DNA of 32,000 nt, taken from Anaerobacillus isosaccharinicus. Lineage in GTDB: Bacteria > Bacillota > Bacilli > Bacillales > Anaerobacillaceae. The notes beneath the pieces are model-generated. The model was given only the letters and a program-made list of their open reading frames with translations, was not told the DNA's origin and made no database searches. Position numbers and translations under genes: made by a program. Location: positions 826,164-858,163 of the forward strand of contig NZ_CP063356.2 of NCBI RefSeq assembly GCF_001866075.4. The letters run 5' to 3'. This document shows positions 18,496 through 23,520 of the stretch, one piece after another (position 1 is the first letter of the stretch; each line of letters opens with the position of its first letter).

Positions 18496-19005
18496 GTGAT
18501 AATCATCATATCATCTATTTTAACCGTTTTTTTAGTAGGTTTGTCAACTGGAGGATTACTCGTTTCAAGGAGAATAGATCCTCATCAAACGTTATTTATT
18601 GTAGTGGGGTTAGCATTTTTTTTATTTTTCTATATTGGGATGTTTATTGGAAGTAAGCTCTTGGCGTTTGTTAGTCACGGTGTTATGAGTATTGTCTTTG
18701 GTTTATTTTGTTTAGCTCTTATAGGTTTTTTAGTTTTGAAGTACGATCCATCCTTCGGGTATGTGAAGCAAGAGCCAGTATCACTAAGTGTTTTTATTGC
18801 ATTTTTTCTTTTACTTGGGATGGAAGTTGCTGTATTAGAAATATCACTTTGGTTTTCACTATTTGCTACAGCAATTTTTGTTGGAAGTTTATTTCTTGGA
18901 TTTATGTTTATGTACCAAATTCTTCATCGGCATCGTACGCCACAAATCTTAGCATTAATTCCCCTCGTTCCGCTTCTTTTCATCGGGCTTTTTAAACTGA
19001 TATAA
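18496..19005 (+). CDS. Polytopic membrane protein (5-6 TM), possibly a divergent DUF204 (MntP/YtaF-like) fold
   Basis: GTG start with GAGGTGAGG RBS. The protein is very hydrophobic with a two-halves organisation. The acidic residues typical of MntP are not evident, so the family call is weak. Confidence 0.4.
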   Translation: MIIIISSILTVFLVGLSTGGLLVSRRIDPHQTLFIVVGLAFFLFFYIGMFIGSKLLAFVSHGVMSIVFGLFCLALIGFLVLKYDPSFGYVKQEPVSLSVFIAFFLLLGMEVAVLEISLWFSLFATAIFVGSLFLGFMFMYQILHRHRTPQILALIPLVPLLFIGLFKLI

Positions 19006-19040
19006 TAGGAAGTAAGAAGACTGAGATAGGGTGAATATAA

Positions 19041-19244
19041 ATGAACACAATGTATGAACTAAGACAATTTTTACAAAAACATGGTGCCTTTATTTATACC
19101 GGTGACCGGGCCGGTGATATTGAACTTTTTGAAATGGAATTGAGGCAATTATACGAGTGGAATATGATAGATATTCAAATGCTACAGCAAGGTTTATTAA
19201 TCTTAAAGCGCGAATTAAGTGAATATAATCAAGCGAAAAACTGA
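19041..19244 (+). CDS. yqgQ: YqgQ-family small protein (DUF910)
   Basis: 67 aa. The pattern LRQFLQKHGAFIYTGDRAGDIELFEMELRQLYEWNMI resembles B. subtilis YqgQ, and the gene sits upstream of glcK as in B. subtilis. Confidence 0.7.
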   Translation: MNTMYELRQFLQKHGAFIYTGDRAGDIELFEMELRQLYEWNMIDIQMLQQGLLILKRELSEYNQAKN

Positions 19245-19288: not shown

Positions 19289-20398
19289 ATGAGTATATTT
19301 TCAATGGAACACGTATGGAAAAAAACAGAGACTAACTTTGAACTAAAAAATGTTTCCCTCTCTATTTTGGAGGATGAATGGCTATTAATTTCTGGCCCAG
19401 TAGGAGAAGGAAAAGAAGTCCTACAAAAAGTTATTTTAGGCTTTGATAATGATTGGGATGGTTTGATTTGTTTAAACAAAAAGAATATAAAAAATTATGA
19501 GGGCTATGCTGAAAAAATAGCGTTTATCCATAACCGTTTTATTGAAGAAAAAGGTTCAGAGACAATTTTTGATTATCTAGCGCTACCACTGAAAATTAAA
19601 GGGAAAACCGAAATAGAAATAAGAAAAGAAATTAATAACGTACACAAGCAATTTATGAATATAGTGGAACTTACAAAAAAAATGAAAGACCTGTCGCTTC
19701 AGGAAAAAGTGTCTGTATCCTTTTTAAAAGCGATATTAATGAATCCAAGTTTAATTGTTATTGATGAACCTTTTTATCAGTTGTCCAACAGTAAAAGAAA
19801 ACTCATTTTAGAAACATTTAAGGACAATCTCCGTAATTGGAAAGGTTGTCCCGTTGTTATTTTTAGTAGCTATATTCTAGAGTGGCTCCCCTTTTGTGAC
19901 CGGATTGCAGTCTTTAAAGAAAACGGCCTTTTGCAAATAGGTGAACCACAGGTTCTAATAGAACACCCTCAACATGCTTTTGTTGCTAAGTACTTACATG
20001 GAGAAGATTTTACACTTTTAAAGGGAATCTTAAAAGGGAACCGTTTTATTACAGAAGGTTTTTCTTTTTTACTACCAAAACAAGTACTTCAAGACTATCT
20101 ATTCTTTGAAGGGCAAGAACTTGTCCTTGGAATGATGGCAACTAGTTTTCAAATAGTGGACAAGCCTATTTCTGATACCATTGGCCTGACTTTTAAAGCT
20201 CCAATTCATATTTTTTATGAGAAGAATGGTTTTTACAAGGTCTATTCAAACATCGGTCACTTTCCTCTAGTTGCCCAAATAAAAATAAATGGTAAAATTA
20301 ATGAAGGGGAGCAAGTACAATTATTTTTCCCTTTTGATCATTTACTGTTTTTTGACGGAAATACAGAAAAAAAGATTAATGCAAAGAGGTTGATTTAA
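19289..20398 (+). CDS. MsmX/MalK-like ABC ATPase paralogue with degenerate catalytic motifs (probable pseudo-ATPase)
   Basis: Collinear by eye with MsmX over its full length, including the C-terminal regulatory/TOBE-like domain and the HLLFFDGNTEKKI tail. Walker A is GPVGEGKE (S/T lost), the Q-loop IAFIHNRF, the signature LSLQE instead of LSGGQ, and the H-loop FSSY. Walker B LIVIDEP is retained. Confidence 0.65.
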   Translation: MSIFSMEHVWKKTETNFELKNVSLSILEDEWLLISGPVGEGKEVLQKVILGFDNDWDGLICLNKKNIKNYEGYAEKIAFIHNRFIEEKGSETIFDYLALPLKIKGKTEIEIRKEINNVHKQFMNIVELTKKMKDLSLQEKVSVSFLKAILMNPSLIVIDEPFYQLSNSKRKLILETFKDNLRNWKGCPVVIFSSYILEWLPFCDRIAVFKENGLLQIGEPQVLIEHPQHAFVAKYLHGEDFTLLKGILKGNRFITEGFSFLLPKQVLQDYLFFEGQELVLGMMATSFQIVDKPISDTIGLTFKAPIHIFYEKNGFYKVYSNIGHFPLVAQIKINGKINEGEQVQLFFPFDHLLFFDGNTEKKINAKRLI

Positions 20399-21366
20399 TG
20401 GATAATCATTGGTTTGTAGGGGTAGATATTGGTGGAACAACGATAAAAATGGCTTTTATCGATACATATGGTGAAATCATCACGAAGTGGGAAATTGCTA
20501 CGAATACGCATAATGAAGGTAGGCAAATTACAACTGATATTAGTAAGTCGATATTTATGAAATTAGATGAATTGAATGAGCCTAAGGAAAAGTTAGCAGG
20601 AATTGGTGTGGGTGCACCAGGATTTATTAATATGGAAAATGGCTTTATTTATAAGGCTGTAAATATTGGTTGGAAGGACTTCCCTCTAAAGGATCGTCTT
20701 GAAGTTGATACAGGATTACCAGTAGTCGTAGATAATGATGCTAATTTAGCGGCCCTTGGTGAGATGTGGCGTGGAGCTGGTGACGGCGCGAAAAATTTAC
20801 TTGCAGTAACATTAGGTACAGGTGTTGGTGGTGGGCTAATAGCCAATGGAAACATCGTACATGGAGTCAATGGGATGGCTGGTGAAATTGGTCATCTTAC
20901 ATCAGTGGCTAAAGGTGGAGCGCCATGTAATTGTGGGAAAACAGGTTGTTTAGAAACGATAGCATCGGCAACAGGCATCGCCCGAATTGCTAAAGAAAAA
21001 GCGAGTGAATCAAATGATAGTGAACTTGCCATAATCTTAAGTCGTGATGGTAAGCTTACGGCAAAAGACGTATTTGATGCTGCTAGTAAAGAAGATGCTT
21101 TGGCTTTGGAAGTAGTTGACGAAATAAGCTTCCACTTGGGATTAGCAATTGCCAATCTTGCTAATGCAGTAAATCCAGAAAAAATTGTCATTGGTGGCGG
21201 AGTATCTAAAGCTGGTGATTTATTAATTGATCATATTAATAAGCATTTTCAGACCTATGCTTTGCCAAGAGTAGCACAAGGTGCAAAGATTGCTGTTGCG
21301 ACGTTAGGAAACGATGCCGGTGTTATTGGAGCTGTCTGGTTAATCAAGCAGAAGGTTAATAATTAA
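20398..21366 (+). CDS. glcK: Glucokinase (ROK family)
   Basis: VGVDIGGTTIKMA ATP-binding motif, ROK signature and zinc motif (GHLT...CNCGKTGCLE). 322 aa. The start overlaps the upstream stop (TAATG). Confidence 0.9.
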   Translation: MDNHWFVGVDIGGTTIKMAFIDTYGEIITKWEIATNTHNEGRQITTDISKSIFMKLDELNEPKEKLAGIGVGAPGFINMENGFIYKAVNIGWKDFPLKDRLEVDTGLPVVVDNDANLAALGEMWRGAGDGAKNLLAVTLGTGVGGGLIANGNIVHGVNGMAGEIGHLTSVAKGGAPCNCGKTGCLETIASATGIARIAKEKASESNDSELAIILSRDGKLTAKDVFDAASKEDALALEVVDEISFHLGLAIANLANAVNPEKIVIGGGVSKAGDLLIDHINKHFQTYALPRVAQGAKIAVATLGNDAGVIGAVWLIKQKVNN

Positions 21367-21386: not shown

Positions 21387-21424
21387 GGTCAGGCACCTCT
21401 TTATTGAAGAGTCTGGCCTTTTTT
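21387..21424 (+). terminator. Rho-independent terminator of the glcK operon
   Basis: Imperfect GGTCAG...CTCTT / AAGAG...CTGGCC hairpin (21387-21418) followed by T6 (21419-21424). Confidence 0.7.
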
Positions 21425-21635: not shown

Positions 21636-23520
21636 ATAGACTCTCGGAATAAATGATGAGTTTATCGAAGATTTGTAAAAAATTTACTGGGAATTTCATT
21701 AACAGGACAGCAAAGTGATGTGTTTTCATAGTGTTTTCAAAAAAGTGTATACCAAATAAGCCTACGGCTGCTATTTTTTAAAAATGACTAGGCGCTCTTA
21801 GAAAAGATGATTTCTTGGATGTTCAAAGTCTCTTTCTGACTACTGTACCAAGCATCTATGTGTTGACACATCATGATTGAATATAAGCGGACATACCACA
21901 TTTTTGTAGAGCGATGACGCCCAGATTCTAAGTGATAGTCGACTTTTTCTCTTTTGTTCGAACGTTCAACTGAAGTTCTTCGTTTATAAATCAGTTTCCA
22001 CTTTTCAGAAGACCTCGGTGTTTTAGTGAACAGACGAAGATTATCTTGCTTAAACGTATGAAATGTCCGGCCATACTTCGCTTTAGAACACGGAGTGGAA
22101 CATGTATTTTTTGTTCCGCAAGCTAGTGGACAACGCCACTTTTGGCGGTTTTGAGATTTGTCAAACCCATTGGGTTTCATTTCCATTCCAATTGGACAAA
22201 TAGGAACGCCTAGGGGAGAAATCTGAATATCACTTTGCGTACTGAAGTTTTTCTTTGTTCGAACATTAAGATCAATAAATGGTTCCACATTATGATGGTC
22301 CAGTAATTCGTAAATCGGTTCTGCATCATGTGCGGCATCGAGAAGGATTTTATCAATTGTGCCCAAGGTGTACCGTTGCGAAAATTCAATTGAACCAACC
22401 ACTAGGCTGACTGAATCATGCCGGGAAGCAGGATGCAGCCGTGGATATAGCGGCAAGTCGTATTGGCTATCGCTAGTGGATATCATGTAGAGATGATATC
22501 CGTTGAAGTACCTCTCCCGTGAACTATCCCAACCTGAGTCGATGTCAGGTTGAGAATATCGACGAGGATGAGTACAATTCGTTAGTCCTTGGGCACTACA
22601 ATCACAAATAGGTTTGCTCCTTGGGTATCTCGCTGTTTCCACGGGTGTCCCATCTCCAACAACACCAAGGGAATGGGGATCCCCAAGCAAACCCAATCTC
22701 GCTGAAACTTCAAGAAATTGAGATTGAAAAAACGCGTATAATTGATCTCCCGGCAATTGTTTTTGTTTTGAGCCATTGCGTAAATGACGATCCACTAATT
22801 TTCTAATAATACCAGGGTTTCTAGGAGTTGCTTTTTCACCCTTTTTCGGTTTTTTCTTCTTCTTCTTTTTTCGTTTGAGCTTAATAAAAGGTTTTACATT
22901 AGCCTTCTCAAAACCTGATAGCCGTCTGAAGAAGTCATAAAAAGTACCGACACCTGGAACATCCCCAGGTTCAAAGCCGCTAAGGATCGTGTAAAGAGGA
23001 ACACGATGGAGTTGGTTCACCCATTCTGTAATACTCAGGGTCGGACTTGTCAATAAACACAAAAGATAAGAGCGAAGCATGGAAGCAGGATCACGTGGCT
23101 CAGGACCTTTAACTGAATATGAATCATGAAGCCACGTAGTGGTAAACGAAAGATCCGTGATCCATAACTTCGAGATAATAGTCCAATCTTTTTGTACGAG
23201 AGTCAGTATACCGCCTGAGTAATGAGTATTTAATTGGTCTAAAACGAAGTTTTGATATGAGATATGTGGTATTAGCGCAGGTTTCATTTAAATCCCCCAT
23301 TTCACCGTATTGTTAGGAAGTCAATTCCTCCTCGGCGATTATTGGGGTTCCACTAAAAAGTCAAGTGTTTTTTTAGTTTTTTTATGATATTTTTCAACAA
23401 TTAATTTCCAATTGAAGAAGAAAACTAAAGTAAAAATCCCACCTAGAAATAGGAGGGATACAAATAAATTGGTTCAAGAAAACCTTGAGCCACAAGGCTC
23501 GGCAAATGCCGAGAGTCTAT
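21636..23520 (-). mobile_element. Intact insertion sequence, 1885 bp, IS4/IS5-superfamily DDE type (IS1182-like?)
   Basis: 12-bp perfect terminal inverted repeats: ATAGACTCTCGG (21636-21647) and CCGAGAGTCTAT (23509-23520). They are flanked by direct TAAG repeats (21632-21635 and 23521-24). The element carries a single 499-aa transposase ORF. Confidence 0.85.
21788..23287 (-). CDS. DDE transposase (Y-2-R-3-E-6-K motif; DUF772-like N-terminal region)
   Basis: YKRRTSVERSNKREK fits the YREK signature of IS4/IS5-type transposases. The N-terminal block RDPASMLRSYLLCLL...ITEWVNQL is DUF772-like. The protein also has a Cys-rich region and a lysine run (KRKKKKKKKPKK). GGGGGA RBS. Confidence 0.85.
   Translation of the reverse strand: MKPALIPHISYQNFVLDQLNTHYSGGILTLVQKDWTIISKLWITDLSFTTTWLHDSYSVKGPEPRDPASMLRSYLLCLLTSPTLSITEWVNQLHRVPLYTILSGFEPGDVPGVGTFYDFFRRLSGFEKANVKPFIKLKRKKKKKKKPKKGEKATPRNPGIIRKLVDRHLRNGSKQKQLPGDQLYAFFQSQFLEVSARLGLLGDPHSLGVVGDGTPVETARYPRSKPICDCSAQGLTNCTHPRRYSQPDIDSGWDSSRERYFNGYHLYMISTSDSQYDLPLYPRLHPASRHDSVSLVVGSIEFSQRYTLGTIDKILLDAAHDAEPIYELLDHHNVEPFIDLNVRTKKNFSTQSDIQISPLGVPICPIGMEMKPNGFDKSQNRQKWRCPLACGTKNTCSTPCSKAKYGRTFHTFKQDNLRLFTKTPRSSEKWKLIYKRRTSVERSNKREKVDYHLESGRHRSTKMWYVRLYSIMMCQHIDAWYSSQKETLNIQEIIFSKSA

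Follow-up and report, generated by a model that had tools for sequence, protein, structure and literature searches.

MalK of Escherichia coli is an active transporter subunit that moonlights as a regulator, and its C-terminal regulatory domain binds MalT and EIIA-Glc. In Bacillus subtilis, MsmX (structure 6YIR) is an orphan multitask ATPase of CUT1 importers, and its paralogue FrlP (YurJ) is a working ATPase (PMC12632257). Degenerate ATP sites have been described in heterodimeric ATP-binding cassette (ABC) proteins, among them TM287/288, TAP1 and the first nucleotide-binding domain (NBD1) of CFTR; in such heterodimers one composite site is lost, and the degenerate subunit still supplies the active site with a consensus signature (PMC7756269). 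Here we describe a gene of Anaerobacillus isosaccharinicus whose product is built like MsmX, is almost certainly non-hydrolysing and is encoded between yqgQ and the glucokinase gene glcK. The gene lies in a 32,000-nucleotide stretch of DNA (the window; positions 826,164–858,163 of the forward strand of NZ_CP063356.2, assembly GCF_001866075.4), to which all coordinates given below refer. It occupies 19289–20398 on the + strand and specifies a 369-residue ABC nucleotide-binding protein of the MsmX/MalK type with degenerate catalytic motifs, called the pseudo-ATPase in what follows.

The pseudo-ATPase has the same length and the same three-part architecture as B. subtilis MsmX and, like MsmX, is encoded apart from permease genes: no BPD_transp_1 permease gene was found in the window, the closest lies more than 80 kb away, and the genome's three pairs of CUT1 permeases map near 3.05, 3.71 and 4.92 Mb (G000:C1); the absence of nearby permease genes agrees with an earlier note on this DNA. 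On the other hand, the two proteins are only 20–22% identical, and the Walker A Ser/Thr, the Q-loop Gln, the LSGGQ signature, the D-loop and the H-loop His of MsmX are all replaced. The pseudo-ATPase also evolves at least ten times faster, as judged from branch lengths in a tree, and is restricted to a single genus. Whereas FrlP hydrolyses ATP, the pseudo-ATPase almost certainly does not. The MalK-type C-terminal domain is common to E. coli MalK and the pseudo-ATPase, and because this domain is retained, regulation by protein–protein contact through it would be a reasonable model, with the difference that the pseudo-ATPase appears to keep the scaffold only. The protein resembles the degenerate sites of ABC heterodimers in the loss of the catalytic Glu or the H-loop His, with ATP binding possibly kept as a structural or regulatory ligand. 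It differs from them in being a stand-alone importer-type NBD and in that a single polypeptide is degenerate at its P-loop side and its signature side alike. Our literature search found no description of stand-alone importer-type NBDs that are under selection and degenerate on both of these sides.

The assignment of the protein to the MsmX/MalK class relies on both profile and structure comparisons. Residues 19–162 matched Pfam ABC_tran (PF00005) with 46.6 bits against a cut-off of 25; the canonical MsmX of the same genome scored 110.8 bits. The NCBIfam models UgpC, GlcV, WtpC, PotA and MalK span the pseudo-ATPase from end to end and score far under their cut-offs (UgpC, 90 bits against 432; MalK, 61 against 568; GlcV, 87 against 450; WtpC, 114 against 440). 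The protein aligned over its full length, C-terminal domain included, with the MalK/MsmX-type structures 2d62, 1g29 and 6yir. An AlphaFold2 model built on 12 family sequences had a predicted local distance difference test score (pLDDT) of 86 and a predicted template modelling (TM) score of 0.82. The best match of this model in the PDB, found with Foldseek, was B. subtilis MsmX (6yir; TM scores of 0.83 and 0.84 over 367 columns, 22% identity), followed by archaeal MalK-type proteins, AlgS, SugC and GlcV; in a structure search of the ESM Atlas, it matched OB_MalK/TOBE_2 ATPases with TM scores of 0.86–0.89. Taken together, the model and the two structure searches indicate the complete MsmX/MalK/UgpC fold, consisting of a RecA-like core, a helical subdomain and a C-terminal OB/TOBE regulatory domain. 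The collinearity with sugar-importer ATPases that the earlier note had read from the sequence is thus borne out. The predicted regulatory (OB/TOBE-like) domain comprises residues 237–369 (19997–20395, + strand) and is beta-rich in the model; Pfam OB_MalK and TOBE_2 were not detected in it by sequence. By language-model features, the nearest ESM Atlas clusters (ranks 1–3) are proteins of 352–363 residues from Acidobacteriota and Bacillota, with 50–77 members each and a match to ABC_tran only. These clusters might represent further diverged MalK-like ATPases whose C-terminal domain is past recognition.

To describe the catalytic motifs, 15 family members were aligned against five canonical MsmX-type proteins, with motif positions in MsmX taken from PMC7658222. 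Individual Anaerobacillus genomes in the comparison are designated G001, G003 and G005–G009, and P0044 is a further family member. The A-loop Tyr is Trp in 13 of the 15 members, and the aromatic residue is gone in G009 and P0044. The Walker A motif of the window's protein reads GPVGEGKE (residues 36–43; 19394–19417, + strand) in place of the canonical GPSGCGKS/T, with Lys42 retained and the Ser/Thr replaced by Glu43, and the family pattern is GP.G.GKE; the Ser/Thr position is Glu in 14 of the 15 members and Gln in P0044, and the Walker A Lys is itself Ile in G009. The Q-loop VFQNY is IHNRF in the window's protein, and no member has the Gln, which is replaced by Asn, Ser, Thr, Lys, Asp or Tyr. 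The segment after the Q-loop, which in MalK and MsmX lines the cleft for the coupling helix of the permease (PMC7658222), is acidic and variable across the family and carries a one-residue insertion. The signature LSGGQ is LSLQE (residues 135–139; 19691–19705, + strand) or a similar sequence, and the Gly-Gly pair is absent from all 15 members.

The remaining motifs form a more mixed picture. The Walker B motif (LIVIDE) is intact in the window's protein and is followed by a remodelled D-loop, PFYQLSNS, the two making up a conserved family-specific block (19751–19792, + strand). Across the family, the Walker B Asp is kept in ten members and is Glu in five; the catalytic Glu is kept in 13 and replaced by Gln in G009 and His in P0044. 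The D-loop SNLD has become YQLS or YELP. The H-loop THD is (F)SSY, within an IFSSY sequence that contains a one-residue (Phe) insertion (residues 191–195; 19859–19873, + strand), and the His is absent from 15 of 15 members; at this site F192 and Y195 are invariant and S193 and S194 nearly so in a 12-row family alignment. The residues that are strictly kept near the former active site, GKE, EPFYQL..NSKR and CPVVIFSSY..EW, include many aromatic ones. The earlier note had listed the altered Walker A, Q-loop, signature and H-loop and the surviving Walker B from a single protein, and the alignment shows that these losses are family-wide. Because the Walker A Lys or the catalytic Glu is also gone in the two divergent members, hydrolysis is not the conserved function of the family, and because degeneration affects the P-loop side as well as the signature side, no consensus ATP site would form either in a homodimer or in a dimer with MsmX.

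Despite these changes, the gene is maintained. We measured the ratio of non-synonymous to synonymous substitution rates (omega) in three independent close pairs, namely the window and a metagenome contig, a JGI contig and G008, and G001 and GCA_001866055. The omega of the pseudo-ATPase gene was 0.22–0.30 per pair and 0.26 when the pairs were pooled (117 synonymous and 135 non-synonymous differences; Fisher p = 4e-23 against neutrality), and it was alike in all four regions of the protein. In the same pairs, the omega of glcK and yqgQ was 0.04–0.07. Purifying selection thus maintains the gene, at a relaxed level. Family-wide identity is lowest in the Q-loop/helical part, at 0.32 compared with 0.47 for the RecA-like parts; this part is the most conserved stretch of canonical MsmX (0.86). 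We rejected the notion that the helical/Q-loop region is unconstrained, as its recent omega of 0.22 equals that of the other regions and only its deep divergence stands. With the motif losses, the MsmX-like full-length model and the purifying selection, the earlier proposal of a pseudo-ATPase with a MalK-type fold is well supported.

The family is confined to Anaerobacillus. A word-indexed search of 5.8 billion proteins returned eight relatives with 43–100% identity, one of them from Anaerobacillus alkaliphilus, and a profile search of 1.84 billion cluster representatives gave seven matches above 300 bits, followed by canonical ATPases at 182 bits. When the family profile was run against 401 genomes from 133 genera of the order, Anaerobacillus alone scored 448–596 bits and all others scored 185 bits or less. 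The gene is present in seven of the ten Anaerobacillus species genomes. Of 30 other families of the order, 27 have glcK directly after yqgQ. This pair is therefore the older arrangement, into which the pseudo-ATPase gene was inserted in one lineage; the earlier note had supposed such an insertion from B. subtilis. Among both genomes and metagenome contigs, it stands immediately upstream of glcK in every subclade, including members that are 26–27% identical; these cases descend from a single insertion and are therefore not independent evidence for a link to GlcK. In another family of the order, a 250-residue nitroreductase-like gene is inserted between yqgQ and glcK (L049 589–1341, G027:C29), so this junction has taken insertions more than once.

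In a tree with MsmX of Anaerobacillus and 13 other genera and other NBDs of the genome, the family sits on a long stem branch (1.9 substitutions per site), which obscures the source of the gene. The best canonical matches worldwide (182 bits) are no better than Bacillales MsmX (up to 185 bits), and a local origin would be compatible with these scores. An ancestral msmX–glcK module was considered as the origin and rejected, since the glcK that neighbours msmX in G006 is of a separate lineage and glcK does not adjoin msmX at any of 14 other msmX loci. At that locus of G006, a sister species (L023 7875–11129, G006:C1, at about 2.98 Mb), the gene immediately downstream of canonical msmX encodes a second-lineage ROK glucokinase. 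Both genes follow a PucR-type regulator and belong to a locus for beta-1,2-glucan utilisation that also contains a 1,2-beta-oligoglucan phosphorylase (SOGP/GH94), a GH3 beta-glucosidase and a DUF624 protein. In the window's own genome, too, msmX comes after a PucR-type regulator (L025 6493–7455).

Several genomes have lost the gene or its neighbour. In G007 (99% complete, 3.3 Mb), the pseudo-ATPase gene has been deleted, and yqgQ and glcK are adjacent, with a remnant of 18 residues of the pseudo-ATPase C-terminus (83% identity) between them (L019, about 2509–2562, G007:C16). G007 is also the sole genome among those checked that lacks an MsmX orthologue, its best match being 43% identical; every genome that carries the pseudo-ATPase has one. 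In G006, yqgQ is directly followed by thiE, and the pseudo-ATPase gene, glcK and yqgU are gone from the locus; its sole glucokinase is of the second lineage. In G001 and GCA_001866055, glcK is cut to a C-terminal remnant and the pseudo-ATPase gene is intact with an omega of 0.30; G001 carries a second-lineage glucokinase elsewhere. The copy in G005 is apparently frameshifted. Its frameshifts fall at homopolymers and a conserved neighbour gene is frameshifted too, which makes an assembly error likely, and we therefore left it out of the count of losses. The number of CUT1 binding proteins per genome showed no clear pattern. The conservation of the yqgQ–pseudo-ATPase–glcK arrangement, by which the earlier note proposed to check its regulatory idea, holds in part: the order and the tight spacing recur in every subclade, but glcK is reduced to a remnant in G001 and GCA_001866055, and G007 keeps glcK alone. 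From these cases, neither gene has a strict requirement for the other in cis, and some species manage without the pseudo-ATPase.

The explanation that we favour, with moderate confidence, is that the pseudo-ATPase is a non-catalytic descendant of the MsmX/MalK class, inserted once between yqgQ and glcK in the ancestor of Anaerobacillus, which works by binding, its likely partner being its own kin. The residues on which the ABC ATP-sandwich hydrolysis cycle depends are lost from it and the entire MsmX architecture is kept; it would act through binding rather than hydrolysis. In the main clade, the A-loop aromatic residue, the Walker A Lys and both acidic Walker B residues are present, and these proteins may still bind nucleotide as a ligand. 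A new functional surface has probably formed on the remodelled, aromatic-rich and family-conserved face of the D-loop and H-loop (PFYQL..NSKR and IFSSY..EW). Our best guess is that the MalK-type C-terminal domain mediates pairing, either between two copies of the protein or with the orphan multitask MsmX, and that this would adjust MsmX-dependent oligosaccharide import in concert with the expression of glcK. We slightly prefer such a partner (itself or MsmX) and rank GlcK as the next candidate, because selection on the gene is unchanged where the adjacent glcK is gone and because the MsmX-less G007 has deleted the gene. This preference is weak, as single cases underlie it.

A number of observations weigh against this explanation. 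The Q-loop/coupling-cleft segment is hydrophilic and variable in the family, which makes classical docking on a permease doubtful, and the Glu that replaces the Walker A Ser/Thr could hinder nucleotide binding altogether. The omega of the gene is four to six times that of its neighbours and the gene has been lost at least twice, a combination that fits a marginal function. The co-absence of MsmX and the pseudo-ATPase is limited to one genome, G007, and G006 retains MsmX yet has no pseudo-ATPase, so the gene is dispensable there. Finally, the family falls outside the tight MsmX cluster in the tree, and descent from the lineage's own MsmX is only a possible origin.

Other explanations have to be weighed against the same evidence. 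The pseudo-ATPase could be a GlcK-specific subunit that binds the ROK glucokinase and regulates or localises it, possibly reporting the state of sugar transport. Its gene is directly upstream of glcK in every subclade, with an overlap or a gap of 4–15 nucleotides that favours coupled translation, and the yqgQ locus of G006 lacks both the gene and glcK1; from these features, a functional link to GlcK is suggestive. We nevertheless consider a dedicated subunit unlikely, given that all of the adjacency derives from one insertion and amounts to one observation, and that the co-absence in G006 could be a single deletion that also took yqgU. Furthermore, glcK1 persists in G007 after deletion of the pseudo-ATPase, the gene is as constrained beside the glcK1 remnant of G001 and GCA_001866055 as elsewhere, and GlcK does without such a partner in the 27 other sampled families. 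Another explanation, which we regard as rather unlikely, is that a dead importer ATPase was recruited as a regulator made together with glucokinase, coupling oligosaccharide ABC import to the capacity for glucose phosphorylation. It might do so by pairing with MsmX as a decoy or brake, or by sensing another ligand in its remodelled, aromatic-rich nucleotide pocket.

A further possibility is that the gene is left over from a duplicated or transferred msmX, has no function and stays open only through its place in an expressed operon. Its fast evolution (89% amino acid identity compared with 98% for glcK), its losses in G006 and G007, the apparent frameshifts in G005 and its confinement to one genus fit this idea. 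Yet the pooled omega is far below 1 and the constraint is found in three independent pairs and in four protein regions, the frame is intact among members that share just 26–45% identity, the new family-specific motifs are strictly conserved, and the G005 frameshifts are probably an assembly error; a relic is thus quite improbable. More improbable again, in our view, is an asymmetric heterodimer of MsmX and the pseudo-ATPase on a permease, in which, as in heterodimeric ABC exporters, one of the two ATP sites would be consensus and the other degenerate. Such asymmetric pairing has good precedent among ABC proteins (PMC7756269), the fold and length match MsmX, and MsmX occurs in all carrier genomes, but with the signature LSLQE and the D-loop lost neither composite site would be consensus, and the coupling-cleft segment is hydrophilic and variable. 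Least probable of all is a working, unusual ATPase that energises a transporter, with catalysis by the Walker A Lys and the Walker B Asp-Glu. The window's protein does have the A-loop aromatic Trp10, Lys42, Asp159 and Glu160, and its ABC_tran domain exceeds the Pfam cut-off. However, the Q-loop Gln, the two glycines of the signature, the D-loop and the H-loop His are missing throughout the family; established ABC enzymology, and the description of MalK and MsmX in PMC7658222, make these elements necessary for hydrolysis and coupling. In addition, Lys42 or Glu160 is itself gone in G009 and P0044, the window has no permease gene, and the scores are far under every NCBIfam ATPase cut-off.

The genes around the pseudo-ATPase are arranged as follows. 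The gene yqgQ (19041–19244, + strand) encodes a 67-residue YqgQ-like protein (PF06014, Pfam E = 1.8e-20). The start of the pseudo-ATPase gene at 19289 is supported by the conservation of the N-terminal 'MS.LS' extension among its relatives. The downstream gene glcK (20398–21366, + strand) encodes a 322-residue ROK-family glucokinase (Pfam ROK E = 6e-77; TIGR00744, 388.3 bits against a cut-off of 260.35). Its putative ribosome-binding site, AAGAGG (20384–20389, + strand), was read from the sequence within the final codons of the pseudo-ATPase open reading frame. The overlap of the pseudo-ATPase stop with the glcK start at TAATG (20396–20400, + strand), reported in the earlier note, was verified from the sequence and the ends of the two reading frames; in relatives, this junction is a 4-nucleotide ATGA overlap (G003, G009) or a gap of 4–15 nucleotides. 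Upstream of yqgQ, a consensus scan found a promoter-like site (18977–19006, + strand; TTTTCA, an 18-nucleotide spacer and a TG-extended TATAAT) with 10 of 12 matches. This is a pattern match of a kind whose regional tally is not above that of shuffled sequence, and the site is a possible operon promoter. After glcK, a terminator-like hairpin followed by U6 (21387–21424, + strand) had a predicted folding energy of −17.5 kcal/mol (z = −1.84); we tentatively regard it as a terminator, and the consensus scan made no call there. That scan called no terminator-like site between yqgQ and glcK, and its sole call in the region (20603–20620) lies inside glcK and is a count not above that of shuffled sequence. 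With no terminator-like call from yqgQ to glcK, the promoter-like site before yqgQ and the hairpin after glcK, the three genes look like a single operon that would be co-transcribed.

The flanks of the three genes showed further features. An insertion sequence (IS) element lies shortly downstream of glcK (21788–23287), and in G001 a transposase-like open reading frame is found downstream of the truncated glcK remnant (L010 3552–4085 and L010 2627–2879, G001:C4); the region 3' of glcK seems to be prone to IS activity. On the other side, between a DUF1694 gene and yqgQ, a 169-residue polytopic membrane protein that is conserved in the genus is encoded at 18496–19005 (+ strand). It had no Pfam or NCBIfam match, and its omega was 0.06–0.17 in two close pairs and 0.34 in a third. 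At least two other families have distant copies (25–28% identity) at the corresponding position. We rejected this protein as a dedicated partner of the pseudo-ATPase, as it adjoins yqgQ also in families that lack the pseudo-ATPase.

The reach of these findings is narrow, since the gene belongs to one genus, is dispensable in some of its species and evolves fast. For annotation, they carry a warning: public records label the gene 'ABC transporter ATP-binding protein' or 'sugar transport ATPase subunit', and its product very probably cannot hydrolyse ATP. Should the pseudo-ATPase control glucokinase or the uptake that depends on MsmX, it would offer a compact case of a transporter engine turned into a pseudoenzyme regulator. 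If it proves to be a regulator that joins import to glucose phosphorylation, it would represent a new, pseudoenzyme-based form of carbon-source control.

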